From Pseudomonadota bacterium (GTDB lineage: Bacteria > Bdellovibrionota > FAC87 > UBA2466), in the NCBI GenBank assembly GCA_043718025.1, contig JAYSWN010000139.1, positions 1 through 57,395 of the forward strand: a DNA stretch of 57,395 bases, written 5' to 3'. Below are positions 6,669 to 48,339 of the stretch, in pieces. Position numbers and translations under genes: made by a program. Under the pieces are notes generated by a model that ran no database searches, was not told the DNA's origin, and saw only the letters and a list, made by a program, of their open reading frames with translations. The stretch's first letter is position 1. Every line of letters begins with the position of its first letter.

Positions 6669-6794
6669 GAATCCCCCCGAATCCAAATTTCACGTTAAGT
6701 AATGGCGCGGTAATGGTCTATCTGCCTGGTAACTACTCTGTAACATACGTTACCACTCGAACTATTTCAGAGGAGACGCTACACTTTATTTCTG

Positions 6795-8594
6795 GTGCAA
6801 AAACCCATCGTCATCATTCTCACCTCTCTCTTCTCGCTACTAAACTTTAGTTGCGCTTCAAAGTCGGTGTACCAGCCTACGTCGGTAGTTGCCACTTACC
6901 GCGACCGCCCGATGTCGCATCTTACCGGCGAAGAGGTGCAAGAACTCGAGCTGCTCGGCCAACGTCACGATCTCGACACGCTGCAGAAGCGCCGGCTTTG
7001 GGAGTTAACCGGCTACGAGATTCGCGGCATCAAAGCAAACACGCCGCGCTACCGCGAGAAGGTGGCGCTGCAAACTGCTCTGGCCGCCGAGCTGGTCGAC
7101 TTGGACTCTGAGCTTCGCAATGTAAAAGACGAAATCTTGGCGTGGAAAGACCCCTCGGCCACTCCTGAAGAAAAGCCGAGCGCCTCGTTTCGCAGCTCTA
7201 AACTTCGCCGCGAATACACCCAAGTCTTGAGCATTTGGAATAAAGATCATCTTGAAGAGGCGATGAAGAAAATTCAAATGGTGGTGGGTGACGAAAAGCT
7301 TATGGCCGACGCTACTCCCGAAGAGTGGACCAAGCTGCTAACGCTACGGTTTCGACTGGCGGTGGAGTTAGACCAGACCACCCTGGCGGTCGACTCTTAC
7401 CAGGGGATCAAAGCGCACGGAAAATGTACGCCCGATTCGGCCCAGGCCGCTTTTTTACTCTCCATCCATTACCTCGTGAAAAATGAGGGGGCCAAGGGGC
7501 TCGAAGTTTTAGAGTCACAATGTGATCCTGACGTCAGCCCCTATAACCGTATCCGACGGCTCTATTGGCAGGGCCGGCTCAAGGCTTCCACCGGCATTCC
7601 CCGAGCCCTAGCGTACAAAGAGTTATTGGCCACGCCGGTTCCCGGCTACTACCTCTACCTCGCCAAAGCGTGGATGAAAGAGCGGCTCGAGTTTCCGGTG
7701 GGCGCGTTTGGTCAGCCATCAGTTCTTAGGGCACCGCTCGAACTTCCTAGTCGAGTCGTGGAACTTATCGAAAAATCAAAAGAGCGGCTCGGCACCAATC
7801 TTAAGAAGGAGAGTTCGGTATTTTTGGTTAGAGCGTCGCAGTTACTTCGCGACCAACGTTCAAAAGAGTCGGTCGATGGCCTGTTATACGTTGCCCACCT
7901 GATGCAGGCGTCAGCCCAGCCGCTAGAAGCGATGCGCCTCTATGCGTTCGTTAGCCAAGAGCTGCAAGGGGAGAGCGCCACCTATAAAGGGGTGCCGCTT
8001 GATTTCTTAGCCGAGATGTTTCCTAAACCCTTCGCAACTGAGATTGAACTCAAATGCCAAGAGTGGGGCTTAGATCCCGATTACGTTTTTGCACTGATGC
8101 GGCAAGAAAGCGCTTTTAACGCGGGGGCCTTATCTAGCGCCGATGCCCGCGGCGTGTTGCAGATTCTCCCCTCCGTGGCGCGTGAAATTGCCCGTCAGAA
8201 AAGGTATCCCTACTTCCAAGATCGTTCGCTTTTTCACGTGAACGAAAACCTCAAGATGGCGCTCACGCACTTGGTGACCCTGAAGGCCAAAGTAGAGCAT
8301 CCTTTCTTTATTGCCGCCAGTTACAACGCCGGCTACGAGCGTTTTTCACGCTGGCGTCGACGTTACGGCAACTATCCGTTGGATGCCTTTGTCGAATTGA
8401 TTCCGGTGAATGAGACAAAAAACTACATCAAGCTCGTTACGCGCAATCTTTTGCATTATCGTGCCCAACGCAATGGTGGCTGGGTCGAACCCAATCTGTT
8501 TCCGCTCGAAGGGTTTAATGCCGGCCCAGTGGCTGGGGTCTCCAGAATTGAAAAGAGCGGGACCCTTCTCGCCGCCCCGCCCCTCAGTAACTAA
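6795..8594 (+). CDS. Soluble lytic transglycosylase (SLT domain) lipoprotein
   Basis: Lipobox-like FSC; MRQESAF, GVLQI, ASYNAG and ETKNY motifs. Confidence 0.9.
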   Translation: MQKPIVIILTSLFSLLNFSCASKSVYQPTSVVATYRDRPMSHLTGEEVQELELLGQRHDLDTLQKRRLWELTGYEIRGIKANTPRYREKVALQTALAAELVDLDSELRNVKDEILAWKDPSATPEEKPSASFRSSKLRREYTQVLSIWNKDHLEEAMKKIQMVVGDEKLMADATPEEWTKLLTLRFRLAVELDQTTLAVDSYQGIKAHGKCTPDSAQAAFLLSIHYLVKNEGAKGLEVLESQCDPDVSPYNRIRRLYWQGRLKASTGIPRALAYKELLATPVPGYYLYLAKAWMKERLEFPVGAFGQPSVLRAPLELPSRVVELIEKSKERLGTNLKKESSVFLVRASQLLRDQRSKESVDGLLYVAHLMQASAQPLEAMRLYAFVSQELQGESATYKGVPLDFLAEMFPKPFATEIELKCQEWGLDPDYVFALMRQESAFNAGALSSADARGVLQILPSVAREIARQKRYPYFQDRSLFHVNENLKMALTHLVTLKAKVEHPFFIAASYNAGYERFSRWRRRYGNYPLDAFVELIPVNETKNYIKLVTRNLLHYRAQRNGGWVEPNLFPLEGFNAGPVAGVSRIEKSGTLLAAPPLSN

Positions 8595-9330: not shown

Positions 9331-9474
9331 TTGCGATCGGCGCATTCCGTCAGTCGACGGTCAGCGGCACCGCGGTGACGTGAATTGTCACCCCGAATGC
9401 GGTTTGCTAGCCAATCTTCAGACGTAGACCAATAGAAAACATAGACTTAATCAGCCCTTGTTTACGGCCGGCGC

Positions 9475-9490
9475 TGGCACCCCTCTTGCT
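9475..9490 (+). promoter_or_regulatory. Sigma-54 (-24/-12) promoter of the S8 protease
   Basis: TGGCAC-CCCTC-TTGCT with exact GG-N10-GC spacing, about 70 nt upstream of ATG 9560. Confidence 0.7.
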
Positions 9491-9559
9491 CAAGTAAATG
9501 GCGTCGCGGTTCCGCCTCAACGGCTTCCGCGAAGGTTCATGTTCAAGCGGGAGTTGTGG

Positions 9560-10855
9560 ATGCGTCGTTCGGGGCAACAAAAGACGAAAATCATCAGTTT
9601 CTTAATCCTCGTTTTCACCTTGCCGGCGGCAGCCAAGATGAACGTGGCTAAACGTTACGAGCAACTTCAATACCCTGTTCTCCCGCTAGAAATCTCCGAT
9701 CGCCTCAAAGGAAAAAAAGCATCGACCATCGTGAAAAATGACGGGGCGATTGCTAAAGACTGGGCCTTGGCCTCGATTGGCTTTTTTGAATTACTTACGC
9801 CCTCGTTTTCTCTCACCCGCGCCGGCGCCGCCGAATGTGGATCTCCGGTCGTGGTGGCGGTGGTCGATACCGGAATTGATTACGTGCATCCCGATTTAAA
9901 AAGTTTGATCTGGACCAACTCCGGTGAATCCGGCCCTTGGGAAGCCCCTGCCGAGCTGAAAGCACAAGGCTTAGCTTGCAACGACAAATCTTGTAACGGC
10001 ATTGACGATGACAATAATGGTTTTATCGACGACGTGATGGGCTGGGATTTTGTTCACGACTTACCATTGCCGTACGATACGCACGGCCATGGCACTCACA
10101 TTGCCGGTATTGTAGCTTCTACTGCGGTGGCCGGTTTAGCGGATGGGGCAAATTGCCAACGCGTTCAGATCATGCCGCTGAAGTATTACGATAACTCTGG
10201 TGCCGGTTTTAATAACTTGGCTAACACCGTTCGTGCCATCCAGTACGCAGTAAAAAACGGTGCTGCCATCATCAACTATAGCGGCGGCGGATCAGATCCT
10301 GCGGCTTCCGAAAAAGCGGCGATAGAAGACGCTAATCGCAAAGGTATTTTATTTATCGCGGCCGCCGGTAACGACGGCCATAACAACGACAGCGCGCCCT
10401 ATTACCCTGCCAGCTACGGCCTTGAAAATATTATCGGCGTGGCTTCGCTCAATAAACAAAATCAGCTTTTACCCTCGAGTAACTTTGGCAAGACGGTCCA
10501 GGTAGGAGCTCCGGGCCTTTCGATTCTTTCCACTCTGCCCGAAGGAAAATTTGGAACCATGTCGGGTACCTCGCAGGCAACTGCTTTTGTCACCGGCACC
10601 GCGGCACTGTTGGCCAATCAGCTTAAGTCAAAATCGCCAGATGATTTCAAGAAAGTTAAGGGCTGGATTCTGGAAGGAACGAAACCCCTCAAAGGTAACG
10701 AGAAGAAGCAGATTCTTTCGGCCGGCGTGTTGTCGCTGCCCAAAACGATCGTGGCGCAAAGAGACTCTTTAAAGAAGGCTTCAAAAGTATCGCCGCCGTT
10801 GTCTGGACCTGAAGTGGCCACTCGGCCCGCCTTTCGCCCTGCGAAGCTTCGGTAA
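9560..10855 (+). CDS. Secreted subtilisin-like S8 serine protease
   Basis: VDTG, HGTHIAG, AAGN and SGTSQAT catalytic motifs. Start chosen from the GGGAG RBS and the promoter position. Confidence 0.92.
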   Translation: MRRSGQQKTKIISFLILVFTLPAAAKMNVAKRYEQLQYPVLPLEISDRLKGKKASTIVKNDGAIAKDWALASIGFFELLTPSFSLTRAGAAECGSPVVVAVVDTGIDYVHPDLKSLIWTNSGESGPWEAPAELKAQGLACNDKSCNGIDDDNNGFIDDVMGWDFVHDLPLPYDTHGHGTHIAGIVASTAVAGLADGANCQRVQIMPLKYYDNSGAGFNNLANTVRAIQYAVKNGAAIINYSGGGSDPAASEKAAIEDANRKGILFIAAAGNDGHNNDSAPYYPASYGLENIIGVASLNKQNQLLPSSNFGKTVQVGAPGLSILSTLPEGKFGTMSGTSQATAFVTGTAALLANQLKSKSPDDFKKVKGWILEGTKPLKGNEKKQILSAGVLSLPKTIVAQRDSLKKASKVSPPLSGPEVATRPAFRPAKLR

Positions 10856-11055: not shown

Positions 11056-12003
11056 ATGTTTTCGCGTTGTTTAGTGATTGGTTCGTTGCTGCTCTCATTG
11101 GTTTCTTCATTAAAGGCTGATGACGGTGTAGAGGAAAAGCTTTTCACGGCCTATTCGAGAGTAATTGAAGACAGTCCCGCCGAAAAAGACGCACTCACTC
11201 CTAAGCAAATGAGGCAGTTATTCTTGGCGGCGTACAAGCACCCCGTCGCGGATGTAGACGTAATTGGAAAATACGACCCCAAAGAGATTATCGGCTTCTG
11301 TTTTGGCCGCTCAACTACAGTTCACCTTATCGCTAGACAGATGGGGCTTAAAGATTCAGCGATCCGAAAACTTTTTATAATTGGCGATCTGCGTTCCAAT
11401 CCTAAAAAACCGGAATGGCGTTTTCATGTAACGACGCTCGTGAAGGGGCCTGAAAATCAGTGGTACGCGATTGACCCAATTATGACTCCGCCCTTGGCCC
11501 CGGGCGGCGAACTCAAGGTTGAAGAGTGGATCAAGATCGTGAAGAAGACATGGGACTACAAAAAGAAGGCGTACCTTTACGTGGCTCAGGCTTCGGCAAT
11601 CACTCCTGATATTCGGAAAGACGCCGATGGTAAAACTGGCGACCACGTCGTTGAACTTTCGTTCAATCCCGAAAAACAAAAAGGCTTTAAAAAGGTGCGC
11701 TTGGCAGAGTTTGCGGCCTACGTTCCTAGCCAGCAAGCGCAGTCATTGCACTTCTTAGAGGCGTCGGCCGGCGAAACTGAAAATCGTTTTTTGTTTCTCT
11801 CGGTAACTATCGAAGGGATGGGGTTCGTTTCTTTTAATGACTACTTCGTTGAACTCTTAAAAACATTCAATAGACCTATAGCCCTTGCGCAGAGCAACGG
11901 CCTTGAGTTTACGGCTCCTCCCGCAAGCAAGATTCAGTCGCTAAAAGGTGAAGTAGCGCAACCGCCTAATCTCCATAGCTTCCGTCTTGGTACGAAGGAG
12001 TGA
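11056..12003 (+). CDS. Secreted papain-fold Cys-His-Asp protein, protein-glutaminase/deamidase-like
   Basis: Signal peptide; GFCFGR, WRFHVT and AIDP spaced like protein glutaminase GCxAR/WxYHV/IDP. Confidence 0.6.
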   Translation: MFSRCLVIGSLLLSLVSSLKADDGVEEKLFTAYSRVIEDSPAEKDALTPKQMRQLFLAAYKHPVADVDVIGKYDPKEIIGFCFGRSTTVHLIARQMGLKDSAIRKLFIIGDLRSNPKKPEWRFHVTTLVKGPENQWYAIDPIMTPPLAPGGELKVEEWIKIVKKTWDYKKKAYLYVAQASAITPDIRKDADGKTGDHVVELSFNPEKQKGFKKVRLAEFAAYVPSQQAQSLHFLEASAGETENRFLFLSVTIEGMGFVSFNDYFVELLKTFNRPIALAQSNGLEFTAPPASKIQSLKGEVAQPPNLHSFRLGTKE

Positions 12004-12006
12004 TCC

Positions 12007-13344
12007 ATGTCGTTGTGGGCAGATAAAAGCAAACGGCAGTTTTACGACTCGTGGGAGTTCATGCCCGAAGATCGGCGCCAGGAGCTAAAGCGTCGTTTCT
12101 TAAAAGACTACATTCATTTTTCGCGCGAGCTGAAGTACTACGGTGACCGCACCCAGGGCTACGATGGCAATTCGAGCCATCCACTGAAAGCCGTACCGGT
12201 GCTTAACTCCTCAGATATCCGTGACCTGTTACCGCCGATCTCTAACGCTCTGGTAACCGGCGGACTGCGTGATTACACGGTGTTTCAAAGCGGGGGGACC
12301 ACCGGATCTCCAAAATCCACTCTGTTCAGTCACGGCGAGTTGGAGGGGCTAAACCTACCCAATGCCCGTGGTTTTTATGCCTGCGGACTGGTGCCCGAAG
12401 ATCGCGTGGGCAATCTATTTGCAGTGGGCAGCCTCTACATGACCTTCGTGCACATCAATCGAATGTTGCAGCAGTACGGCTGCCAAAATTTTCCATTTTC
12501 TAATCACACGGCGGTTGATTTCGTGCACACCGTGGTCAAGCAATTTGACGTGCGGGTACTTACCGGCATTGCCAGCGTGGTGCTAAACGCACTTCGTGGC
12601 ATGAAAAAAATCGGGCTCGAAGGAATTCAGATCGAAAAAATATTTTATGGCGGCGAGCACTTTTACGAAGCAGATAAAAAAGAGATCGAAGCTACCTTCG
12701 GTACCAAAGTCATATTAGCGCCGGGTTACGGAACAGTCGATACTTGGTACCTCGGTTACCAGTGCACCCAAACTCCAACCGGGGTTTTTCATGCGCACGA
12801 CGATCAAGTCTATTTAGAAGTCGTTGACGAAAACACCGGTGATCTCACCAAGCCGGGCGAAATCGGCATGCTCTATTGCACGGCCTTTCCGCGCCGCCTC
12901 ACCCCCATAGTACGTTACCGCGTTGGGGATCGGGTGAAGTGGACCGGCGAAAGTTGCGCGTGCGGTCGCACGACCCCGCTGTTTCAACTCTTGGGGCGAG
13001 GCGATGATGTTTTGCGCATTGGCTACGACTCTATCGACTACAACGCGATTCAAGATTTAGTGCTGTCGGTTTCGGGGTTGAGTGGCACCGTGCAGATGGA
13101 AAAGCAACGCGAAGCGGGCAAAGACCGGTTTATCGTTAGGGTGGAATCGGAACTCAGTGCGGCCGATAGGCCGGCGGCCGCCGCCGAGTTGGTGCGCGCA
13201 GTATTAGATTCCCGTCCGTCGATTAGAGATTTTTTAAGCAAGGGAAGCGTTTGGCCGGTTCAAGTAGAAGTCGTGGACCCTGGGACGCTACCAAGAAATG
13301 TTCGCACGGGTAAATTAATGCGGGTTATCGATTGTATGGGGTGA
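12007..13344 (+). CDS. Phenylacetate-CoA ligase (PaaK)-family adenylating enzyme
   Basis: SGGTTGSPK, GYGTVD, RYRVGD, GRGDD and RTGK motifs. Confidence 0.9.
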   Translation: MSLWADKSKRQFYDSWEFMPEDRRQELKRRFLKDYIHFSRELKYYGDRTQGYDGNSSHPLKAVPVLNSSDIRDLLPPISNALVTGGLRDYTVFQSGGTTGSPKSTLFSHGELEGLNLPNARGFYACGLVPEDRVGNLFAVGSLYMTFVHINRMLQQYGCQNFPFSNHTAVDFVHTVVKQFDVRVLTGIASVVLNALRGMKKIGLEGIQIEKIFYGGEHFYEADKKEIEATFGTKVILAPGYGTVDTWYLGYQCTQTPTGVFHAHDDQVYLEVVDENTGDLTKPGEIGMLYCTAFPRRLTPIVRYRVGDRVKWTGESCACGRTTPLFQLLGRGDDVLRIGYDSIDYNAIQDLVLSVSGLSGTVQMEKQREAGKDRFIVRVESELSAADRPAAAAELVRAVLDSRPSIRDFLSKGSVWPVQVEVVDPGTLPRNVRTGKLMRVIDCMG

Positions 13345-13348
13345 CTAC

Positions 13349-14821
13349 GTGGTTGATGGGGTTAGCGATAAGGCGGTTTTAGAGTTTCCGGCAAGTCTGC
13401 TTCACGTCGGGCCGGTATTGGGCTACTTAGATGCCTTTTCTACTCAGTTTGGAATTGAAAGCGATCGTCGGGTGCAGCTTAGAGCCGCCACCTCGCGCGC
13501 GCTTGACCTGGTGGTGAAAAACAACGAGCACCTCTTTCCAAAACCTTCGGTTAGCGTGGGTTTTAGCGAAAACAACGGTGAGCTTTTGATTGAGGTGCTC
13601 AATCACGGGGTGCCGATCAACGTGAATAGGAATGGGCAGAGCGCCATTTTTCACGGGCTCACCCAAGGACTTGACCGGGTACTTCTTGAAAATCAGGGTC
13701 GGCAAGGGCAGTCGATAATTTTGGGGATGAAGCTTGGAGAAGCCGCCGCCCGCAAATCATTAGAAGGCAACGTGCGGGTTGCTGAGCCTTTTGATCCTGA
13801 AACGGTTGAGATTAAGATTCGGCGGCTCACCAAGGGCGACGCCAGTGCTATCGCAGAACTTTTTTTCTACGTCTACGGATACGACTACATTCACGATTTT
13901 GTCTACTACCCTGAAAAGCTTGAAAATTTAATTGAATCTGACGAGCTGATTAGCGTCGCGGCAGTCTTGCCCAACGGTCGGCTGGTGGGCCACGTGGGGC
14001 TGCGCCGATGGAACACGTCACCATTGGTTTACGAACCCTGTCTGGGGGTAGTTGACCCGGTGTTAAAATCGAGAGGGGTTTTTAGCAAAGTATTTCAGCA
14101 GGCAATGCAGGTGGTTGAAACCATTCCGATGCATTACCTATTTTTTGATTTCGTCACCAACCACGAGTTTAGCCAAAGGTTTGTCTCTCGTTACCACCCG
14201 GTTGATTTAGCCATTTTTGTGGGCTGCCAAAGTAAGGACACCCAAGCCAAGTTAGAAAAGCTTGGTATGGGCGCGGACCCAAAGAAGACCGATCGTTACA
14301 GCCTATTGTATTCCGTTCTGCCGCGCGTGGAATTCCCCTTCGGCAAAGAGGCCGAGTTGCCCCTTTGCCTAGGTGAGCAGATCGGTTTCTTGCTCGACCC
14401 GCTAGGAATTTCTTGGTACCCGGCGTCGCGGTTTTCCGTTCTGCCTTCGGGTGGCGATTACACAAGTAGTTTGCAGCCGGCGCAAAACGCGATCGTGTTT
14501 GATCTCGTCATGCCCGGGAGAAATGCCGTCGACCGAATTTTGCAGGAGTGGCAGCAGTGTTTGCGCAATGGTTATGAGTACGCGGCGGTAGATGTGCTGG
14601 TGGGCTCCCCTGGGGTGGGCAACCTCTATGACTGCCTTCAGGAGGCGGGCTTCTTTGTTGCCGGGTTTCTTCCGCATAAGATGGGAAGTCAGTTGTCGCT
14701 GCGGTTTCAAGCGGTACGCCCCACTAAACTTGCATTCGACGAAATTCGCGTCGTGAGTCCCATTGCTAACCGACTCTTGGATCTGATTCAGATTCAGTAC
14801 GAAAGGAATGCTTCATTATGA
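13349..14821 (+). CDS. RsbW/HATPase-like domain fused to GNAT-type domain(s)
   Basis: N-terminus resembles the anti-sigma HATPase_c_2 fold (LEFPA..., QLRAA...LVVKN, NHGVP, LDRV..NQGRQG). C-terminal GNAT (YGYDY, GHVGL, VVDP..KSRGV). Confidence 0.7.
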   Translation: MVDGVSDKAVLEFPASLLHVGPVLGYLDAFSTQFGIESDRRVQLRAATSRALDLVVKNNEHLFPKPSVSVGFSENNGELLIEVLNHGVPINVNRNGQSAIFHGLTQGLDRVLLENQGRQGQSIILGMKLGEAAARKSLEGNVRVAEPFDPETVEIKIRRLTKGDASAIAELFFYVYGYDYIHDFVYYPEKLENLIESDELISVAAVLPNGRLVGHVGLRRWNTSPLVYEPCLGVVDPVLKSRGVFSKVFQQAMQVVETIPMHYLFFDFVTNHEFSQRFVSRYHPVDLAIFVGCQSKDTQAKLEKLGMGADPKKTDRYSLLYSVLPRVEFPFGKEAELPLCLGEQIGFLLDPLGISWYPASRFSVLPSGGDYTSSLQPAQNAIVFDLVMPGRNAVDRILQEWQQCLRNGYEYAAVDVLVGSPGVGNLYDCLQEAGFFVAGFLPHKMGSQLSLRFQAVRPTKLAFDEIRVVSPIANRLLDLIQIQYERNASL

Positions 14822-15945
14822 ACGATTTCCAACATTCTGAAGCCATTTGCCGAGTTCCCAACCCACTCGATTGGGATGAATCAAAGAAACAGCTGATGGT
14901 GAATGCTTGTCGGGAAATGGCCGAGTTTCACAATGCCAATTCTTCCGATATTCGTTTCCTTTACCGAAAGAATCAATTTGATCCCTCATCGCTACAGACC
15001 GAAGCTGATTTGGCTCGTCTCCCTTTTGTTGGGGTAACGGCGATGAAATATTTCTTACTCACCTCAGTGCCCCACGATCAGGCGGTGTTGAAATTGACTT
15101 CAAGTGGCACGCGCGGTCAAAAAACTCAGATCTGGTTCGACCAAGCCAGTCTTGATCGCGTGCAGTCACAAATGGATGTGCTGTGGGGGCAGGAAGGTCT
15201 GGTGTCAGATCTGCCAACCAACTACTGCAATTTTATTTATGACCCGAACGATGCGCAAGACCTTGGGATAGCCTTTTCGGTAAAAAATGAAGAGCGTTTT
15301 GCCCCCATGAAAGACTCGTTCTTTGTCGTCCGCAAGAATGCGGCTGGGGTGTGGGAGTTCGATAAGCAAAAGGCCATCGACCGGTTAAGGCGGTACGAGC
15401 AAGAGGGCAGTCCGACGCGACTGTTGGGAATTCCCAGTTTTCTTTTTGAGCTGATTGAAGAGCTACAAAAACGCGGAGAAACCATTTCGCTTCCGCCCCA
15501 TAGTTGGTTGCTTACCGGCGGTGGGTGGAAGGCGGCCGAAGACAAAAGCGTAACGCGTGCCCAGTTTCGGGCGCTGGTTACCGACCTGCTAGGAATTCCG
15601 GCGGCAAATATACGCGATGGCTTTGGCATGGCTGAGCACAGCGCCCCCTACATTGAATGTGACTTCCATCGTTTCCACGTACCGGTTTTCAACCGCGTTC
15701 TAGTGCGTCACCCGGACACTCTTGAGTGTTTGTCCGACGGGCAGGTAGGGCTGCTGGAATTCATTACTCCGTTTAATGCGATGATGCCCAACTTGGCGAT
15801 TCTCTCCACCGACTTGGGTTTTTTAGATCCGGAACAATGTGGGTGCGGAAGAAAATCTCCCACGTTCACTTTGGTTGGCCGCGGCGGTCTTACTAAACAC
15901 AAAGGCTGCGCTATTACCGCCGCTGATTTGGTGAAGAGGAATTAA
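14818..15945 (+). CDS. luxE: LuxE-type acyl-protein synthetase
   Basis: LTSSGTRG, TGGGWK, DGFGMAE, ILSTDLG and C-terminal KGCA with the acylated-Cys position. Confidence 0.9.
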   Translation: MNDFQHSEAICRVPNPLDWDESKKQLMVNACREMAEFHNANSSDIRFLYRKNQFDPSSLQTEADLARLPFVGVTAMKYFLLTSVPHDQAVLKLTSSGTRGQKTQIWFDQASLDRVQSQMDVLWGQEGLVSDLPTNYCNFIYDPNDAQDLGIAFSVKNEERFAPMKDSFFVVRKNAAGVWEFDKQKAIDRLRRYEQEGSPTRLLGIPSFLFELIEELQKRGETISLPPHSWLLTGGGWKAAEDKSVTRAQFRALVTDLLGIPAANIRDGFGMAEHSAPYIECDFHRFHVPVFNRVLVRHPDTLECLSDGQVGLLEFITPFNAMMPNLAILSTDLGFLDPEQCGCGRKSPTFTLVGRGGLTKHKGCAITAADLVKRN

Positions 15946-15946
15946 C

Positions 15947-18568
15947 ATGAGCCGTCATTACTATTTTGGAGAGTGGGTTGAACGCCGGTCAGAGTTAACT
16001 CCGGACGAAGTGGCTCAACTTGCGATTAAAGGGCGCCTCGCCGCCAAAACTTTTGCCGCCTATCCGGTAGAAAAGGTTTTGACGCTACTCGATGCGGTAG
16101 GAAAAGTTTGGGCCAATCCCAATTACCCACCCCGGCTGCGCCTTGAGGCCATACTGCCGCGCACTACTGGATTTTCGGCACCGATGATCCAGTTGGGGAT
16201 GCAAGAGATTCCGTTTGTTCTCAACGCCGAGAACTTGCGAAAGAAACTGCAAGCAGAACTGGGAGGCACCGAACGAGAAGGGCAGTGGAGCTGGTCGTCC
16301 GCATCAAAGACCGCACTCTGTTTAAGCCCACTGGGCGTCATCTTACATGTGATTTCGGGCAACGTATTCTTGGTTGGCATGGGCTCACTGATCGAAGGGC
16401 TGATCACCGGTAACGTTTCAATTTTGAAACGCGCTTCGGTTGAGACTGGCGCCGAGGCAGATTTTTTAAGTGCGCTTATCGACACCATTCGCGACTTAGA
16501 TGCTGAGGGCGTGGTTAGCCGATCATTCGCCATTGTAGATTACCCCTCATCGGCAAAAGCGGTTATCGCCGCTTGGAAAAAAGAGGTCGATGGTCTCGTG
16601 GTTTGGGGAGGCGAAAAAGCGGTTAAGGCTTACCGTGACGATCTTCCGGCGCGTACCCGTTTCATCGTGTTCGGTCCGAAGATTAGTCTCGGTTTGGTGA
16701 CGCGAGCGGGATTGAGCCATTTCGGCGCGGCGAACGTGGCCGAGCGTCTGGCCGTGGAATTGGCGATTTGGGACCAAAATGCGTGTACCGCGCCGCAGGT
16801 CTGTTTCGCTGAAGGCAAAGACACGGCGCTTGCACTTGCTGCCGCCTTGGCCGAAGCGTTGGTAAAAAAGGAGGCCGAGATTCCGGCCGGACCGGCCGAC
16901 ACCAACACGGCGGTTGAAATTCAAAAAATGCGCTCGGTCGCGGAGATCGAAGAAGCTCGCGGCATCGGAAAGGTTTACGAATCAAAAGGAGGGGTCGCGT
17001 GGACGGTTATCGTTGATGAAAAAATGGCCGTGGAATCCTCACCGCTGCACCGTACGATTAGAATTATCGCTGCCGCCAACTTAGAAGCGGTTTTTAATGA
17101 AGTAGAATCGGTTCGTGGCTATTTGCAAACCGTTGGGGTGGCCGCCGCTCCCGCTGAGCTAAAAATGGTGGCCACCGAGTTGGCGCGCCGCGGGGCGGTT
17201 CGTATTTTGGAACTTGGTTTAATGTCGGGCGGAGAGATCGAAGATCCGCACGATGGCGCTTACGATCTGCCTCATTACTTCAATTTCACCTTTGCGCGTT
17301 TTGCTTCGGCTCAACGCTGGCCCGAAAATGCACCGGACACCCATTTGCAGCGCTTAATCGAAGTGGCACGAAATTCACCCTTCTACGGTGAGCGATTAAG
17401 AGGAGTCGAAATTCTTACCGGCGCCGACTTAGCAAAGATTCCCATTCTAACCCGCGACCAAATGGAAGCTAATTTGCCACCGCGTAGTGAGGGGTTAGCG
17501 ACCGGGCATTGGCAGCCAGGCGGTTACGTTTCACGCAGCGGCGGATCGACCGGCGAGCCTAAGTTTTCGATCTACGATGGGCATGATTGGGAACAGATGA
17601 TTGCCCACGCCGTGGGTGTTTTCAAAGAGGCTGGGCTTGAACGAGGCGATCGGGTGGCCAATTGTATGCTCGCCGGAGACTTGTACGGAAGCTTTGTTTC
17701 GTTTGATCACATTAATAGCCGCCTGGGCGTTCAGACCTTTGGGTTCGCCGATAAGCTAGAACCTGATCTGTTCTTAAAGATCTGGCGAGGCTTTAAGATA
17801 AATACGATTCAAGCCATTCCGGCCCTTTTGGTGCCGCTGTTGCGGGCGGCAAAAGCCAAAGACCCCACGTTCACTTTAGAAAAGGTAATGTTTGCCGGCG
17901 CGCCGCTCCAGCCCTCCGATAAAAAATGGATGCGCGACGCGCTGGGGGTCAAACAGATTGCTTCTATCATCGGGGCTAACGACGGGGGGCAGATTGGCTA
18001 CCAGTGCCGCTATTTATCCGGCGCGCTACACCATTCGGTCGATGATTTTAACTACCTTGAGGTAGTGGATGAGCAAGGCCTACCTTGTCCGACCGGAGTC
18101 GCCGGACGCTTGCTGGTGACCAGTCTGCGTAAGCTTGCCTACCCGTTGATTCGCTACGAAGTGGGCGACATGGCCAAGTTTGTGGATCACCCTTGTGAAT
18201 GTGCCAATGGGGGAAGGGTATTCGAATATTTGGGGCGTGCCGATGACACTATCTGCGTTGGCATTTTAAATTTGGCCTACCGCGATTTTCAAAGTGCGCT
18301 CGCTGAAGAATCTATCTCGGCCCTCCAGATTGTGACGGTTAACTCAAGTGGTATTGACGAAATTATTGTGAAGGTAGAGGCAGAGAATCGCGACGCCGCT
18401 TTTAGCGAGCTGCTTCGTAGCCGCGTGCTGAGCCGCGTGGCGAAGGTCGAAAAGAATATTCAAGATGGGCAAATTCGCTCGCTGATGGTGGAGGTACATC
18501 CTCTGGGGTCACTCCCGCGCAATCCTCGCAGCGGAAAGATTAAAACATTGGTAGATTTGAGGAATTAA
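15947..18568 (+). CDS. LuxC-type acyl-CoA reductase fused to a C-terminal PaaK-like ligase domain
   Basis: LuxC motifs HVISGNV, WGGEKAV, FGPKIS, DQNACTAPQ and HDG, followed by SGGSTGEPK, RYEVGD, GRADD and RSGK. Confidence 0.88.
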   Translation: MSRHYYFGEWVERRSELTPDEVAQLAIKGRLAAKTFAAYPVEKVLTLLDAVGKVWANPNYPPRLRLEAILPRTTGFSAPMIQLGMQEIPFVLNAENLRKKLQAELGGTEREGQWSWSSASKTALCLSPLGVILHVISGNVFLVGMGSLIEGLITGNVSILKRASVETGAEADFLSALIDTIRDLDAEGVVSRSFAIVDYPSSAKAVIAAWKKEVDGLVVWGGEKAVKAYRDDLPARTRFIVFGPKISLGLVTRAGLSHFGAANVAERLAVELAIWDQNACTAPQVCFAEGKDTALALAAALAEALVKKEAEIPAGPADTNTAVEIQKMRSVAEIEEARGIGKVYESKGGVAWTVIVDEKMAVESSPLHRTIRIIAAANLEAVFNEVESVRGYLQTVGVAAAPAELKMVATELARRGAVRILELGLMSGGEIEDPHDGAYDLPHYFNFTFARFASAQRWPENAPDTHLQRLIEVARNSPFYGERLRGVEILTGADLAKIPILTRDQMEANLPPRSEGLATGHWQPGGYVSRSGGSTGEPKFSIYDGHDWEQMIAHAVGVFKEAGLERGDRVANCMLAGDLYGSFVSFDHINSRLGVQTFGFADKLEPDLFLKIWRGFKINTIQAIPALLVPLLRAAKAKDPTFTLEKVMFAGAPLQPSDKKWMRDALGVKQIASIIGANDGGQIGYQCRYLSGALHHSVDDFNYLEVVDEQGLPCPTGVAGRLLVTSLRKLAYPLIRYEVGDMAKFVDHPCECANGGRVFEYLGRADDTICVGILNLAYRDFQSALAEESISALQIVTVNSSGIDEIIVKVEAENRDAAFSELLRSRVLSRVAKVEKNIQDGQIRSLMVEVHPLGSLPRNPRSGKIKTLVDLRN

Positions 18569-18572
18569 ACTC

Positions 18573-19793
18573 ATGGTCCTAAAAGAAAAAAACTTTTTCC
18601 GTTTATGGATCGGCCAGATTTTGTCGCAGTCGGGCGCTCGCATGGTGCAGATTGCCGTTTTATGGTGGGGCATCAACCAGGCTGGACCTTTGGCCGGTCG
18701 TTGGGCGGGTGGCCTTTTGGTGCTCTCGGCATTGCCGTCGCTACTATTCGTTAAGATCTTTGGTTTGCTGATTGATCGTTGGCCCAGTCGAAATATTTTA
18801 CTCTTGGCCGATATAGCTTCTGCGCTCTTCGTCGGGTTTCTGGCCCTTGGTTTTTATAAGGGCATTGTATCGACGCCATTCATCTACGCGATGGGGTTTG
18901 GACTGGCCACCTGCCAGGCATTGCTCGACCCTACCTTGAATAAATCCGTGGCACAGGTTGCCAGTGCCGAAAGCCTCGACAAGGCGGTTACGTTAGCCTC
19001 ATCCACCCAGAGTTTAGCCAGTTTCGCCGGGGCCATGTTGGGCGCAGTGCTGATCGACAAAATTGGCGTGGTGCTGACTTTGTCGCTGGCGAGCCTTGGC
19101 TACCTTATCGCTGCCGCCGCAAGTGGCGTAACGTATTTTAGGCCGGTAGCGGGGGAGGGCCCTAACGAAGAGATTAGCGAAACGCCGTGGCAGGTTTTGA
19201 ATCATTATCCATTTTTGAAAAAGTTGTTGTTCGGCTTTGGCTTCGTAAATTTTTTTGGAACCCCCACCTTACTGGTGCTACCGCTCTACGTTAAGCGCGT
19301 GCTGGAAATGAAGGCGAGCGATCTCGGGATGCTCGAAGGGGCTTTGTGGTTGGGCCTTATCTGCGGAACTTGGTGTTCGAGATCCATTAAATACCAGGGA
19401 TCGATTCTCCACGTTGCTTTTATCTGTCTCGCATTTTTGGGATCGGCATTCGCTCTACCCGCGCTCGTGCCGGGCTTTGCGATTTCACTGGGGTGTCTCA
19501 CCGTGGCCGGATTGGCCCTGGGTATAAATAACGCCAAGTTTTTTGTCCTCTTTCAAAACCAGGTTGCGGACCGGGAAAAGGGGAGATTCTTTGCGATTCT
19601 TTCGGCGATTGTAGGATTTAGCTTTCCGGTAGCCTATCTGTTCTTTGGCTTAATGGTGGACCTTGTTCCGGTTACCTCAGTAATGGTGGCTCAGGGATTA
19701 GGGGTAATTGGCGTGGCATTTTACTTTCTATTGCTGCAGGATCAAGGCGGTCGCCGCAGAAAGAATTCGTCACTGGTTTTGGGGGAAGTATGA
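18573..19793 (+). CDS. MFS transporter (DHA3/macrolide-efflux-like exporter)
   Basis: NFFRLWIGQILS, GLLIDRW, about 12 hydrophobic segments, KGRFF. Confidence 0.9.
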   Translation: MVLKEKNFFRLWIGQILSQSGARMVQIAVLWWGINQAGPLAGRWAGGLLVLSALPSLLFVKIFGLLIDRWPSRNILLLADIASALFVGFLALGFYKGIVSTPFIYAMGFGLATCQALLDPTLNKSVAQVASAESLDKAVTLASSTQSLASFAGAMLGAVLIDKIGVVLTLSLASLGYLIAAAASGVTYFRPVAGEGPNEEISETPWQVLNHYPFLKKLLFGFGFVNFFGTPTLLVLPLYVKRVLEMKASDLGMLEGALWLGLICGTWCSRSIKYQGSILHVAFICLAFLGSAFALPALVPGFAISLGCLTVAGLALGINNAKFFVLFQNQVADREKGRFFAILSAIVGFSFPVAYLFFGLMVDLVPVTSVMVAQGLGVIGVAFYFLLLQDQGGRRRKNSSLVLGEV

Positions 19794-21028
19794 ATCTGAA
19801 TTTGGGCTTTCGTCGGGCCATGCCGCGAGATGCATTTGGTTTGATGCAACTCTACCAATTGGCTAATCCCAAGGCTTCGGAAAAATCTGATGAGATGATG
19901 CTGTATCAAGATCGGCTAAGCGTGGAGATCGCCGGCGATCAAAATATCTGGCTTATTGGCGAGCGCGGATCTGAAATTGTGCTTTACCTTGGCATGCAGG
20001 TAGATCGCATCAATCGTTTGGCCAAAATCACCCGGGTTGCTTTTCATCCCGATATTTCAACCGCCGAAGATCTGTTTGAAGAGGCTATGCCGCAACTTCT
20101 CACCTATCTGGCGGAAAAAGGCGTAGAGGTCGTTTACACCACCACTCGTACCATTACGTTGGCGCAACAGGAGATCACTCTACGTTTGGGCTTCAAGATG
20201 TTGGGGGTGTTTCCCAACGCCTTTGGCGGCGACCCACTTAAGATCAATGGCCTGTCTGCTTACTTTTTCGATGGGGTGCTTAAAAACCGGAAAAAAGCCC
20301 GCTTTTCTCTTCATCCGAATGTTGCGCCGTACTATGAAAAAGTGCGTCAGGCATGCGGACTTGAAGAGCTACCGGTGGCCAAGCCAAAAGTGCTTGAAAA
20401 ATTCGTCGGCCATCCCCTACCGGAGCTCGAAATAATTCACGCCCCTAAATTCGTTACGAGCCGTTTTGAAAAGCTACGCGGACGCCAAGCACTCAGCGTT
20501 CATTTCTATCCGTTTCATGAGCCAAATGTTCTGATCACCGATCCGGATCAGAAAATTGAGATCTTCGTGAAGATGGTTCCGGAACAACGTTTTGCCGCTA
20601 TCCTTGGAGAACGCCTCGACATTTATTTGAACCCGGTCGAGTTGTACCAAAAAATTGCGGTGCTGCTCAATCAGCACGGAATTACTTACCTTGAAGTGAT
20701 CAACGACGCAGGGGATTTGGACGGCACGCAAGCCATAATAGACGCCGGCTTTCTTCCTTGCGCCTATTTTCCCTGCTTTAAAAAGCTCGGGGAAGGCCGT
20801 TGGGACTACACCGTGTTTTCATGCTCATTCGAGAAACCCTTACCCCTGTCGGTGAGTCAAACCGCGCCGATTCATCCTGCGTATTTGGATTTCTTAAGAG
20901 AGTACCGCCGCCAAGAGGCCGAGAAATATTTGGCGGCCTTCTCCCCGACTCCAGCGTTGGAACCAATGGTGCCTCATTTGCGTTTGGTAACCGACGCAAA
21001 GCCCCCCACCATCGTTACGTTGCACTAG
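19790..21028 (+). CDS. GNAT-fold protein (probably tandem GNAT)
   Basis: FRRAMPRD start and two GNAT-end motifs (LRLGFKMLGVFP, IDAGFLPCAYFP). ATGA overlap with the MFS gene. Confidence 0.65.
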   Translation: MNLNLGFRRAMPRDAFGLMQLYQLANPKASEKSDEMMLYQDRLSVEIAGDQNIWLIGERGSEIVLYLGMQVDRINRLAKITRVAFHPDISTAEDLFEEAMPQLLTYLAEKGVEVVYTTTRTITLAQQEITLRLGFKMLGVFPNAFGGDPLKINGLSAYFFDGVLKNRKKARFSLHPNVAPYYEKVRQACGLEELPVAKPKVLEKFVGHPLPELEIIHAPKFVTSRFEKLRGRQALSVHFYPFHEPNVLITDPDQKIEIFVKMVPEQRFAAILGERLDIYLNPVELYQKIAVLLNQHGITYLEVINDAGDLDGTQAIIDAGFLPCAYFPCFKKLGEGRWDYTVFSCSFEKPLPLSVSQTAPIHPAYLDFLREYRRQEAEKYLAAFSPTPALEPMVPHLRLVTDAKPPTIVTLH

Positions 21029-22950: not shown

Positions 22951-23595
22951 TTAATACTGCCGGCCGACGAGCACTCGGTTATTCAACTCGTTGGTGTCAT
23001 CTGTTTTCGTCGGAAAGTGATGGGCAAGGTCGTCAGCTAGAGCTCTAATTAGCGCGACTACGCCTTCCGTGGCGTTACCCGCCTTAATGGCCGCAATCAG
23101 TTCATCCACCAGCTCTTTCCAATAGCCGGATTCATGTCGAGAATGTATCCCCTGGTCGGCAAGCAGCTCCACGCGCCGTTCGCAAAGTGAGATTACGATC
23201 AAAATGCCTGATCGGTCGCGGGTGCGCGCAAGCCCCAATGCGGTAAAATGAGCCAATGTTTCGCGATGCACGCACGAAGTGAGCAATGCTTTTGGTGCAA
23301 CGGCGCGAATCACCGCGGCACTGCGCAGCGGCAACACTCCCATTAAAAAACCAAACAACGGTAAGGAAAGGGCCCATTCGAAACTCAAACCCCATGCCGG
23401 GTGGGTGAGGTGCCATCCGTAGGCCACCAGAGAGCCCATCAGCGCACCGAAAATACCGCCCGCAAAACTGAGGCTCCAGTAGTCACTCGCGGCCGGAAGA
23501 ATCAGCGTGACGATCTCACCCGAGGTCTGTTTTTCGGCTACGCCAATGGCGGCTTCAATCTTTTTTAAATCTTCGGGTTGAAACAAGTTCTTCAT
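22951..23595 (-). CDS. TPM-domain membrane protein (LemA operon partner)
   Basis: AEKQTSGEIV, TRDRSGILI, ERRVELLADQGI and DTNEL motifs. Confidence 0.88.
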   Translation of the reverse strand: MKNLFQPEDLKKIEAAIGVAEKQTSGEIVTLILPAASDYWSLSFAGGIFGALMGSLVAYGWHLTHPAWGLSFEWALSLPLFGFLMGVLPLRSAAVIRAVAPKALLTSCVHRETLAHFTALGLARTRDRSGILIVISLCERRVELLADQGIHSRHESGYWKELVDELIAAIKAGNATEGVVALIRALADDLAHHFPTKTDDTNELNNRVLVGRQY

Positions 23596-23602
23596 TTTTT
23601 TT

Positions 23603-24358
23603 TCACCAGTTTGACGACGAACCGCCCCCACCAAAACCGCCCCCGCCGCCCGAAAAGCCCCCGCCGCCGCCAAAACCACCACCGCCGCCGAATCCTCCCC
23701 CTCCGCCAAAACCACCGAATCCCCCGCCACCAAATCGGCCTCCTCTTCCGCCTCCCCCCAAACGATTGAGCGCAGAGAGAAAGACCATGAGCAATAAGAA
23801 GATAAGCACCACGGGTAACGGCGCGCCTCGCCGCGGTTGGTGTCTTACCGGCGGCGCCAGCGGCGCAGAATCGAGACTTACGTTAAGTTTTTGTCCAATC
23901 GCGATTACGCCACTGGCTAAGCCGTCCGCCAAACGGCCGTCTTTAAAGTACGGCCGTACTTCGTCATTAAGCACTCGGCTCGAAAAGGCGTCAGTGATAT
24001 CGCCTTCTAACCCGTACCCCACTTCGAAACGCATTTTGCGGTCGTTAGGAGCCACGAGAAAAAGCAGGCCGCGATCATTTCCTTTGCGACCCAGCTTCCA
24101 TTTCTCAACGACCGCGAGGGCGTAGGTTTCTACCGGCTCGCCGTCAAGGGAGCGAACGGTGAGCACCGCCATCTGCATGTCGGCTTTGGCGTTGAGTTGT
24201 TCAATAAGCGAACTCAACGATCGGGTTTCGTCGCTGGTCAGTATCAGGGCCTCATCGACGACGGGCCCGGATAAAAAAGGAACGTTGATGGCGTTGCCGT
24301 CACCACCGATGCCGAGAACTACCAACACCAGAAACCAAAGACGGTTGACTCGCGTCAC
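23603..24358 (-). CDS. TPM domain (YgcG-like) protein with glycine-rich tail
   Basis: VVDEA, QMAVLTV, WKLGRKG.DRG, FEVGYGLEG and a GGGF-repeat tail ending GGSSSNW. Confidence 0.92.
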   Translation of the reverse strand: MTRVNRLWFLVLVVLGIGGDGNAINVPFLSGPVVDEALILTSDETRSLSSLIEQLNAKADMQMAVLTVRSLDGEPVETYALAVVEKWKLGRKGNDRGLLFLVAPNDRKMRFEVGYGLEGDITDAFSSRVLNDEVRPYFKDGRLADGLASGVIAIGQKLNVSLDSAPLAPPVRHQPRRGAPLPVVLIFLLLMVFLSALNRLGGGGRGGRFGGGGFGGFGGGGGFGGGGGFGGGGGFSGGGGGFGGGGSSSNW

Positions 24359-24930
24359 TAGAATTTCACCTGCGGGACCTTTTTAACCTCTTCGGCAACC
24401 GTGAAGGTCTCGCGTGGTTTCAAGCCCAGTAGGAACTTTGCCGTGAGATTGGTCGGAAAAAATCGAACCATCTTATTAAACTCAGCTACCGTTTCAATAT
24501 AGCGTTTGCGGGCCACGGTGATACGGTTCTCAGTGCCTTCCAATTGTGACTGTAGGTCGCGAAAGTTCTGGTTAGCTTTTAAATCCGGATATTTTTCTAC
24601 CGTAACCATCAAGCGAGAAAGAGCCGATGACATGCCGGCCTGCGCCTCTTCGAAACGCTTCATGGCATTTGGGTCATTCAGCGAGTCGGCTTTAAGCTGT
24701 ACTTGGGTGGCTTTAGCCCGGGCATTGATGACGCCTTCTAAGGTCTCTTTTTCATGTTTGGCGTAGCCTTTAACGGTTTCCACCAGGTTGGGGATCAAGT
24801 CGTTGCGCCGTTGATACTGGTTGTCGACCTCGGAAAGCGCCGCCTTTACGTCCTCGTCAAGCGCCTGCAAGCGGTTGTAGCCGCATCCAGAAAGGGAAAG
24901 AACGGCCAAAAGAATAAATACCAAACGCAT
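24358..24930 (-). CDS. lemA: LemA family protein
   Basis: GCGYN, QYQRRNDLIPNLV, EKYPDLKAN and LEGTENRI motifs. Confidence 0.95.
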   Translation of the reverse strand: MRLVFILLAVLSLSGCGYNRLQALDEDVKAALSEVDNQYQRRNDLIPNLVETVKGYAKHEKETLEGVINARAKATQVQLKADSLNDPNAMKRFEEAQAGMSSALSRLMVTVEKYPDLKANQNFRDLQSQLEGTENRITVARKRYIETVAEFNKMVRFFPTNLTAKFLLGLKPRETFTVAEEVKKVPQVKF

Positions 24931-25152
24931 AGAAATCACCTCATTAGGAATGGGATGCAAATATAAACTGCGGTTCCGCCTACGGCAAATCTCGTGGCGG
25001 CCCCCCGATTCCGCTAACCATCATAAAGAATCAAAGCAAGAGTAGAGCACTTAGCGAGGGGACAGCCCTACCTCCGTCCACGCTCAGAGCAGCTGTCAAA
25101 ATGTTGGTCACTGCCCACTTCGCTATACAGCTGAAAACACTCAGTTCACGGG

Positions 25153-26618: not shown

Positions 26619-27422
26619 ATGTTCTTAGCTGACTTTCATGTCCACTCAACTTTCAGCGATGGCAAAATTCCCTTACCTGACGTAATCGACCTATATGGCA
26701 AACGCGGCTTCGGCGCGATAGCCATCACCGATCACCTTTGTGAAAAATCCACCTTTCTGGGCTTTGCCAGCCGAACCCTAGAGTGCTCCCTGACCCCTGC
26801 CAATTTTCCGCTCTACATGGCGCTACTAAAAACCGAAGCCGAACGCGCTTGGGACCAGTACGGGATGGTGGTGATACCCGGGGTGGAGCTGACCAAAAAT
26901 TTTCTTTCTAACCACCGATCGGCGCACGTGTTGGGGTTGGGCATCTCAGAATTCATTAGGGCCGATCAAGATATCCCCGAGCTGTGTCGCGAGATTCGCG
27001 CCCAAGGTGGGGTTAGTGTAGCGGCCCATCCGGTTTGGACCCGCAAAGTAGAAAAGCAGACCTACCATTTGTGGAATCGAAAAGGCGAACTGCGCGAGTG
27101 TTTCGACGCTTGGGAGGTGGCCAGCGGCCCCCATGTCTTCGAAGAGGTGGCCGATACTAATTTGCCTAAAATCGCCAGTTCCGATCTGCACGTGGCCAGG
27201 CAGATGACGTCGTGGAAAACGGCCCTCGACTGCGAAAAACACCCAGAAGCTATCTTGCGCGCCATCCGCCGCCAGGAAGTAAATTTTGTTTTTTACGAAG
27301 ACCCTATCAAACCCGAAAAGAAAACTTGGGAGGCTAATCATGAGCACGCCCTACGTATTTCCGCTAGTTCTTTGGAGCTTGGCCTTCGGCAGCATGATCT
27401 GGGGAACGTGGTTTGCGCTTAG
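26619..27422 (+). CDS. PHP-domain metal-dependent phosphoesterase
   Basis: DFHVHS.FSDG, AITDH, GVE, AAHP and SSDLH motifs. Confidence 0.9.
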   Translation: MFLADFHVHSTFSDGKIPLPDVIDLYGKRGFGAIAITDHLCEKSTFLGFASRTLECSLTPANFPLYMALLKTEAERAWDQYGMVVIPGVELTKNFLSNHRSAHVLGLGISEFIRADQDIPELCREIRAQGGVSVAAHPVWTRKVEKQTYHLWNRKGELRECFDAWEVASGPHVFEEVADTNLPKIASSDLHVARQMTSWKTALDCEKHPEAILRAIRRQEVNFVFYEDPIKPEKKTWEANHEHALRISASSLELGLRQHDLGNVVCA

Positions 27423-28473
27423 GCAGTTTCGAACCCTCAGCGTAAAACCAACTCACTTTCCGCCCATCTCCATATTGAAACCGGTCAAAGGGGTGGAACA
27501 GGGGTTTGTTGAAAGCCTCGAAGTCTTTTTTGCGCTCGATTATCCAGTATACGAACTCATCTTCTCAGTGGCCGATGGCAATGACCCTGCGGTGGCGGTA
27601 ATAAAAGGTCTGCAAGAAAAATATCCCCGTTGCCCAAGTTTACTCGTCATTGGCTCCGAGGAGATTGGCCCCAATCCAAAAATAAATAATTTGGTAAAGC
27701 CTTACCGACTGGCACGCTACGATATGTTGTTAATCAGCGATAGCAATGTGCGCGTCAGCGCCGATTACTTGAGAAATATTGTGTCTCACCACCGACCGGG
27801 AGTGGGGGTAGTTACCGCCGTGGTCGCCGGCACCTTTCCAAAGGGGTTGGGCGGTGCGCTTGAAGCCACGTACCTCAACAGTTTTTACGCCCGCTGGATG
27901 CAAATGGCCAGCGCCTGCGGCGAGTCGTTCGTGGTCGGAAAACAAATGCTCTTTCGACGTAGCGACATGGATCGTTTCGGCGGACTTCACAATTTGGGCT
28001 GTTACATTGCCGAAGATTACATGGCCGGCAAGGCGATGCGTCGCTTAGGTTTAAAGGTGGTAATTGCGCCCCAGCCAATTCAGCAGTTCATCGGCCAATA
28101 CGGGCTGGGCGATTTTTGGAAACGCCATTTACGTTGGGGCCGCATCCGTAAAGCGCAAGCGCCCCTGGCTTTCGTCTTTGAGCCTTTTTTCTTCTCGCTT
28201 CTCTCCGGAGTGATCGGGGCAATCACTTTTCAACATTGGTGGGGAGTGCCCTGGCCTACGTTCATCGGTATTCATCTATTAGTATGGTTACTGTTTGATC
28301 TGAAGTTGATGCAGCAGTTAGAATCAAAGCTAACCCTTAGCATGGTGGGCAGTTGGGCTTTACGCGAGCTTCTGGCTTTTCCACTGTGGGTTCACATGGC
28401 GCTCGGCAATTCCGTCGATTGGCGAGGCAAGCGTTTTAGAATTCGTAACGGCGGATTAGTCGAGGCAGCGTGA
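27340..28473 (+). CDS. Ceramide glucosyltransferase-like GT21/HpnI-family glycosyltransferase
   Basis: SILKPVKG, NPKINNL, ISDSN, AEDY and RHLRWGR motifs; GGAGG RBS before ATG 27340. Confidence 0.88.
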   Translation: MSTPYVFPLVLWSLAFGSMIWGTWFALRQFRTLSVKPTHFPPISILKPVKGVEQGFVESLEVFFALDYPVYELIFSVADGNDPAVAVIKGLQEKYPRCPSLLVIGSEEIGPNPKINNLVKPYRLARYDMLLISDSNVRVSADYLRNIVSHHRPGVGVVTAVVAGTFPKGLGGALEATYLNSFYARWMQMASACGESFVVGKQMLFRRSDMDRFGGLHNLGCYIAEDYMAGKAMRRLGLKVVIAPQPIQQFIGQYGLGDFWKRHLRWGRIRKAQAPLAFVFEPFFFSLLSGVIGAITFQHWWGVPWPTFIGIHLLVWLLFDLKLMQQLESKLTLSMVGSWALRELLAFPLWVHMALGNSVDWRGKRFRIRNGGLVEAA

Positions 28474-29816: not shown

Positions 29817-29889
29817 ACGCCGTTTCTCTTCATTTGGGTTAGGTTACCCACTGGCTTACCGCGGTGAAATATGGCATACCTACGACCCC

Positions 29890-46868: not shown

Positions 46869-46880
46869 AAGAGATTATTG

Positions 46881-47648: not shown

Positions 47649-47654
47649 TTAAAA

Positions 47655-48338: not shown

Positions 48339-48339
48339 A

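Follow-up and report, generated by a model that had tools for sequence, protein, structure and literature searches.

The stretch of DNA analysed here (the window) comprises 57,395 nucleotides of contig JAYSWN010000139.1 (assembly GCA_043718025.1), from a bacterium assigned to the Bdellovibrionota (FAC87; UBA2466). It contains a run of seven genes on the forward strand, from 11056 to 21028, with intergenic gaps of 3, 4, -4, 1, 4 and -4 bp (Table 1). The fifth gene, at 15947-18568, is a single open reading frame (ORF) of 873 aa with an ATG start and without internal stops. An earlier note, made from the letters alone, had described this ORF as a LuxC-like reductase joined to a complete PaaK-like ligase, paralogous to that encoded at 12007-13344, without a carrier domain. 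Each of these observations was confirmed.

Table 1. Features of the seven-gene operon, the fusion protein being listed first with its parts.
Feature	Position	Strand	Basis
LuxC-type reductase::PaaK-like ligase fusion, 873 aa, LeupB-like	15947..18568	+	ATG start, Pfam, PDB matches
Reductase domain of the fusion, aa 1 to ~451	15947..17299	+	PF05893, 7XC6, residue conservation
Catalytic Cys280 in DQNACTAPQ	16784-16786	+	Alignment
Complete PaaK-like adenylation domain, aa 463-873	17333..18565	+	PDB matches, paralogy, conserved motifs
LuxE-type acyl-protein synthetase, 375 aa, LeupA-like	14818..15945	+	PF04443, 135 bits
LuxE tail Cys364	15907-15909	+	Invariant in relatives
Predicted secreted protein-glutaminase-like Cys-His-Asp hydrolase, 315 aa	11056..12003	+	C82, H124, D140
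Free PaaK-like ligase, 445 aa, putative LeupC-like role	12007..13344	+	Family matches, 29% to LeupC
HATPase_c_2-like domain fused to LeupD-like GNAT region, 490 aa	13349..14821	+	Atlas clusters, LeupD profile match
MFS transporter, 406 aa, likely exporter	18573..19793	+	PF07690, PF05977
Second GNAT-like protein, 412 aa	19790..21028	+	Atlas GNAT clusters, 0.95-0.96

The Pfam family LuxC (PF05893) matched aa 38-441 of the fusion with 260.8 bits (cut-off 21) and AMP-binding (PF00501) matched aa 531-725 with 33.6 bits (cut-off 29.9), and the same scan returned no carrier or short-chain dehydrogenase/reductase (SDR) family. A sequence search of the PDB aligned the LuxC structure 7XC6 over aa 41-443 and the PaaK-like structure 4R1L over aa 466-872. 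The AlphaFold model, built from a 60-sequence alignment (pLDDT 86, pTM 0.77), fitted 7XC6 and PaaK-like folds. The C-terminal half was 31% identical to the 12007-13344 ligase over 415 aa (E 2e-52).

The junction between the domains, near 17300, is not an assembly artefact. Of 7,997 candidates scored for homology, 198 were taken as homologs. Among the best 120 of these 198 (119 excluding the query itself), identities ran from 43-79% and query coverage was 95% or more for 116 of 119; the search admitted only proteins of 480-1528 aa, and split forms could not appear in it. These best matches carried the labels Elusimicrobiota, Riflebacteria, Bdellovibrionota and Pendulispora. At the level of genome loci, both domains shared one reading frame in 54 of 55 loci of the fusion type, the 55th stopping at a contig end before the domain junction. 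Contigs of two sequencing runs covered 14500-19000 with zero differences at a depth of ~10, although they may themselves be the source of the window, and one 227-nt contig, from a third sample in that study, covered 17182-17408 identically. Full-length relatives, one-frame loci and junction-spanning contigs together confirm the fusion as a real two-enzyme protein.

Both halves of the protein look catalytically intact, judging from conserved residues. In the reductase domain, C280 and the conserved Q394, H435 and D436 corresponded to C296, Q402, H442 and D443 of Photobacterium phosphoreum LuxC by a hand count on the PDB-search alignment. The P-loop of the adenylation domain, RSGGSTGEP, occupied aa 530-538. 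Across 120 aligned proteins C280, G532, G533, G536 and D741 were invariant and R764 was kept in 117, and position 866 was lysine in 95 and arginine in 17 of the 118 proteins with a residue there. An inactive ligase half was ruled out on these motifs, which are retained in the relatives.

The gene ending 1 bp upstream of the fusion encodes a LuxE-type acyl-protein synthetase whose K238, R355 and C364 were invariant (44/44). As described in PMC9157457, LuxE adenylates its substrate, keeps the acyl moiety bound to a cysteine in its own tail, C364 (K238 and R355 also being involved), and hands it to C296 of LuxC, where it is reduced by NADPH; acyl-CoA is also accepted as a donor. LuxE directly preceded the fusion in 47 of 51 loci under a strict 250-nt rule, and lay beside it in 49 of 51 once L010, with a gap of 258 nt, and L049, with a frameshifted reductase, were counted. 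The remaining two loci (L038 and L045) had no LuxE beside the fusion; both genomes carried a 55-61% identical LuxE elsewhere. In addition, 29 of 301 genomes of the phylum matched the reductase domain (E ≤1e-40) and all 29 also matched LuxE, which was found in 61 of the 301 overall. Because of this gene linkage and the known LuxC/LuxE chemistry, the acyl carrier missing from the fusion is most likely the LuxE cysteine.

The closest known relative of the whole gene set is the leupeptin operon. In 2020, Li et al. reportedly described this operon, an MFS gene with leupABCD, from Klebsiella michiganensis/oxytoca, and it is said to occur in Xenorhabdus and Photorhabdus too. The K. michiganensis operon is described as encoding an MFS protein, a LuxE/PaaK-family enzyme, an acyl-CoA reductase, a member of the phenylacetate-CoA-ligase family, and a GNAT. 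A MIBiG entry for it is cited in PMC10548850, and the K. oxytoca operon is tied to leupeptin and pyrazinones in PMC11480411. The route is presented in PMC11212599 as independent of nonribosomal peptide synthetases (NRPS), with separate AMP-dependent ligases making the amide bonds and a reductase making the aldehyde.

The identity of LeupB was established through the published primers leupA_f and leupB_r, for which a product of 1,235 bp is given in PMC8283571. In all four Klebsiella-type loci tried, both primers matched exactly, with a predicted product of 1,235 bp in three and 1,280 bp in L062; neither matched at the Salmonella locus. Since leupB_r falls within an 802-aa LuxC plus AMP-binding ORF, LeupB is itself a fusion of this kind, and the architecture of the window protein is thus not new but already known as LeupB. 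The same fusion was present in 9 of 185 matching plasmid records, from Streptomyces relatives and Salmonella, and in two annotated plasmid loci its neighbours were LuxE, another ligase and a GNAT. The Salmonella fusion was 66% identical to its K. michiganensis counterpart of 801-802 aa, in which both Pfam domains also occur.

The window fusion was 26% identical to K. michiganensis LeupB end to end (E 7e-62), the window LuxE 33% identical to LeupA, the free ligase 29% identical to LeupC over 394 aa, and the GNAT region of the 13349-14821 protein 28% identical to LeupD over 127 aa. In both the window and leup operons the domains of the fusion come in the same order, LuxE lies directly upstream across a gap of 1 bp, and a second PaaK-like ligase stands free; both also have a GNAT related to LeupD and an MFS transporter, and neither has a carrier protein. 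A small residue follows the catalytic cysteine in both families, threonine in that of the window (TAPQ in 118/120) and serine in that of LeupB (SSPQ in 103/120).

The two operons also differ. The window fusion is 873 rather than 802 aa long because its ligase keeps an N-terminal segment; accordingly, the distance from HDG to the P-loop had a median of 105 in 119 window-type proteins and 70 in 109 LeupB-type proteins. Unlike in leup, the LeupD-related GNAT is joined to a HATPase_c_2-like domain, a secreted cysteine hydrolase is linked, the gene order is different, and the second GNAT and MFS protein resemble the types of Streptomyces clusters rather than those of Klebsiella. Among the papers listed in our searches, none described this operon for Bdellovibrionota or Elusimicrobiota; the work of Li et al. 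and its supplements may include remote leup relatives, this branch among them. A LuxC-LuxE fusion, RfbN of Vibrio cholerae, would be another precedent, though our search found no paper on it. A preprint on falcitidin was set aside as a precedent, as it concerns an NRPS pathway. A second branch with fusions of LeupB length (~800 aa) was observed in family f10 of the same phylum: locus L084 (G030:C1:653368-659304) contains a GNAT, LuxE (48% to LeupA), the fusion (36% to LeupB) and a free ligase (37% to LeupC), and 39 of 74 f10 genomes matched LuxE.

In a 61-row tree under LG+G4, the window fused, window free, LeupB-type and LeupC-type ligases grouped together (SH-aLRT 96), with E. coli PaaK outside the group. 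A mixture-model tree, restricted to 32 of the 61 rows and leaving out E. coli PaaK as a long branch, joined the window fused ligases to those of LeupB and the Streptomyces fusions (97/87). The ligase trees and approximately unbiased (AU) tests neither showed nor rejected an independent fusion or a domain swap. The reductase tree had only two outgroup rows, and no proof of a single clade was taken from it.

Related arrangements were observed on plasmids. In L074:4778-7356, from a Streptomyces europaeiscabiei plasmid, LuxE is accompanied by a stand-alone LuxC nested with the Streptomyces fused reductases (99/96), and its neighbours are DUF692, MBL-fold and YcaO-like genes and short ORFs; this is possibly a reductase module recruited to a cluster resembling those for ribosomally synthesized and post-translationally modified peptides. 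L069:5167-7230 and L070:5278-7266, from Streptomyces and Burkholderia plasmids, encode proteins of 662-687 aa whose ligase domain is sister to the window fused ligase (100/99). By eye their N-terminus looks like an eroded piece of LuxC, although the profile gave only E 0.33 with L070 and no match with L069, and no LuxE was annotated within 6 kb.

The remaining members of the operon were assigned as follows. The product of 13349-14821 had no Pfam or NCBIfam match; its Atlas clusters carried PF00583 and PF13581 at 0.96-0.99, and its family profile matched LeupD (E 3e-17) over only ~130 of 305 aa. The family profile of the MFS protein matched the Streptomyces cluster MFS at E 1e-100 but reached just E 0.067 with the MFS of Klebsiella leup, and that of the second GNAT matched the Streptomyces cluster GNAT at E 1e-42, with no significant match to LeupD. 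Scans for promoters and terminators stayed at chance level (7 versus 7.7 and 14 versus 14.9).

In the hydrolase encoded by the first gene, the triad C82/H124/D140 was invariant (26/26). PF18626 matched 23 of the 26 family members at E ≤0.01, with the window copy under the cut-off. The hydrolase matched PDB entry 8Z3I at E 3.5e-6, its fold matched protein-glutaminases with TM scores of 0.32-0.34 by query, and its N-terminus appeared hydrophobic by eye. Other hydrolase genes are found in the window: a peptidase C13-like gene (5514-6686, reverse strand), an SLT transglycosylase (6795-8594, forward), an M14 carboxypeptidase (41993-43054, forward) and a subtilase S8 (9458-10855, forward), the last directly upstream of the cysteine hydrolase, a position it holds in just one other locus (L001). 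Elsewhere in genome G000, contigs C63, C50, C78 and C119 hold three more protein-glutaminase-like paralogs (239, 105 and 29 bits) and one unlinked luciferase-like monooxygenase.

Linkage of these genes was scored across loci with profiles built from the same loci, leaving out the distant locus L056. Of the 27 loci whose flanks were long enough on either side, 26 had LuxE, 24 the second GNAT, 23 the MFS gene, 22 the HATPase-GNAT, 22 the free ligase and 16 the hydrolase. Among 33 loci with 6.5 kb or more of upstream sequence, the free ligase and the HATPase-GNAT were both present in 27 (long forms) and both absent in 6 (short forms). The hydrolase gene occurred in 20 of the 27 long-form loci and in none of the 6 short-form loci, and its linkage persisted through rearrangements. 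No statistic is claimed on this co-occurrence because related genomes are not independent. Short forms were seen at L009, L032 and L047 (Riflebacteria and one unclassified genome) and at L016 and L039 (Elusimicrobia), and hold LuxE and the fusion, with or without the MFS gene, or with GNATs.

By analogy to leup, the operon probably makes and exports a small aldehyde of an N-acylated peptide (or amino acid), with no NRPS involved. A GNAT would cap an amino acid, and the free and fused PaaK-like domains would each adenylate the growing acid and join it to the next amino acid by an amide bond; the PaaK-like enzymes ClxA and ClxC are described as joining building blocks directly (PMC9400959). LuxE would then adenylate the finished peptide acid and keep it as a thioester on Cys364, from which the acyl group would move to Cys280 of the reductase domain for release as the aldehyde by NADPH, and the MFS protein would export it. 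The chemistry, the order of these steps and the product are proposed on homology to leupA-D, and the product need not be leupeptin. The earlier note had taken three adenylating units to imply several acids. Three such units are indeed encoded (the 12007 ligase, the 14818 LuxE and the fused domain) and likely have three different acyl substrates; in the leup precedent, the three adenylating enzymes work towards a single tripeptide aldehyde rather than on unrelated acids. Reading the product from the LuxE pocket was attempted and abandoned: the LeupA aspartate corresponds to window Val155, but among 39 relatives this column held D in 14, V in 10, E in 4, I in 3 and C in 3. No product is claimed because the column varies and its mapping to the binding pocket is unconfirmed.

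Several observations weigh against this reading. The window proteins are only 26-33% identical to the Leup proteins, the MFS protein and second GNAT are not close to those of Klebsiella, and ~65 positions at the start of the ligase profile, retained in the window protein, are lacking in LeupB. As 6 of 33 loci have neither the free ligase nor the HATPase-GNAT, the length of the chain must vary. The LG+G4 tree left the order of the four ligase clades unresolved, and AU tests retained both a single clade of fused and free window-type ligases (p 0.08) and a grouping of the free ligase with LeupC (p 0.149). By BLAST, the C-terminal domain of LeupB was closer to the free ligase (34%, 119 bits) than to the fused one (28%, 109 bits).

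A CoA-dependent pathway is an unlikely alternative to peptide-aldehyde synthesis. Here the PaaK-like domains would convert small or aromatic acids to acyl-CoAs, with which the two GNATs would acylate an amine or amino acid; LuxE and the reductase would turn the result into an N-acyl amino aldehyde or another small aldehyde. Two GNATs and two PaaK-like ligases would suit two acyl-CoA/GNAT pairs, and the best PDB sequence matches are acyl- or aryl-CoA ligases. The joint presence or absence of the free ligase and HATPase-GNAT fits such pairing, subject to the same relatedness of the genomes, but also suits a LeupC/LeupD-like pair for capping and elongation. Among operons with this set of enzymes only one has been characterised, and its product is a peptide aldehyde. 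The ligases share their fold and adenylation motifs with PaaK, BT_0428, NatL2, AjiA1 and ClxA/ClxC, but they fall below all equivalog cut-offs, lie in a clade separate from E. coli PaaK, and are not accompanied in the operon by paa or aminobenzoate genes. Phenylacetate-CoA ligase, and with it PaaK catabolism, was rejected on that separation and on the equivalog scores (TIGR02155, 72.6 of 646 bits; NF041878, 79.1 of 700 bits).

Less probable still is the model of the earlier note, in which the fusion alone reduces an acid, its ligase feeding Cys280 directly or through acyl-CoA, by analogy to carboxylic acid reductases (CARs). CARs combine an adenylation domain, a phosphopantetheinyl carrier and an SDR reductase in one chain (A-T-R). 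The fusion resembles them in uniting adenylation and thioester reduction in one chain, but its domain order is opposite, its reductase has an aldehyde dehydrogenase (ALDH) fold rather than an SDR fold, it has no carrier, and a separate LuxE is kept. Membership of the CAR class was rejected, as Pfam found no carrier or SDR family and the AlphaFold model gave an ALDH-type fold. A stand-alone enzyme would be in keeping with two apparently intact halves, with a fused ligase that retains the full PaaK fold, unlike that of LeupB, and with the two loci lacking an adjacent LuxE; LuxC, moreover, takes acyl-CoA as well as acyl-LuxE (PMC9157457). However, both of those genomes hold LuxE elsewhere, all 29 genomes of the phylum that matched the reductase domain have it, and a LuxE-type KGC tail, which could act as a thiol carrier, was found in 0 of 120 fused ligases. 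The genomic evidence thus points to dependence on LuxE, and the claim of a self-contained acid-to-aldehyde reductase was not upheld.

Supply of long-chain fatty aldehyde for luminescence or lipid synthesis by a lux-type reductase (LuxCDE) is very improbable and was rejected: LuxE precedes an ALDH-fold LuxC domain with a catalytic cysteine in adjacent genes, and the LuxE motifs equal those of the P. phosphoreum enzyme (7XC6, PMC9157457), but the reductase is fused to a ligase, NCBIfam scores reach only 109 of 750 bits for LuxC and 103 of 550 for LuxE, the operon has no luxD or luxAB, no LuxD family match was found in the 92% complete genome, the sole luciferase-like gene sits on another contig, F297, which follows the catalytic cysteine of fatty-acid LuxC and whose Ala mutant is reported as nearly inactive, is replaced by threonine, and no counterpart of the tail 460-488 that closes the long-chain cleft aligned in the fusion with 7XC6.

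Other genes of the window bear on different functions. Overlapping ORFs at 26619-29816 (forward) encode a PHP-domain protein, a glycosyltransferase of family 21 and a GH1 glycosidase, possibly for glycolipid synthesis and turnover. Phosphate genes lie in 29797-31998, 39483-41060 and 43918-50832 (Ppx/GppA, a phosphate-binding protein, an ABC permease and a PAS histidine kinase), together with an ORF that we take to be polyphosphate kinase-like. A three-gene run at 22951-24960 (reverse), which presumably resembles TPM-domain and LemA genes, is near the operon in L005 and L055 too.

These results remove the carrier-free CAR analogue as a false lead and assign the gene to the NRPS-free peptide-aldehyde pathways, a class already known but little studied. 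A broader proposal, which we regard as possible but tentative, is that a distinct branch of such pathways in Bdellovibrionota, Elusimicrobiota, Riflebacteria and one myxobacterium makes an undescribed protease inhibitor. The HATPase/anti-sigma-like domain on the capping GNAT might switch its output, and the aldehyde might be co-exported with the operon's own protein-glutaminase-like cysteine hydrolase, which would be either the target of inhibition or responsible for maturing or destroying the aldehyde once it is outside. If the peptide-aldehyde reading of the operon holds, the branch would provide new protease inhibitors of uncultured bacteria, and the natural long (three-ligase) and short (two-ligase) forms would offer a direct test of whether the number of ligases sets peptide length, and the cultured Pendulispora brunnea, which carries the same fusion at 47% identity, may make the chemistry accessible.

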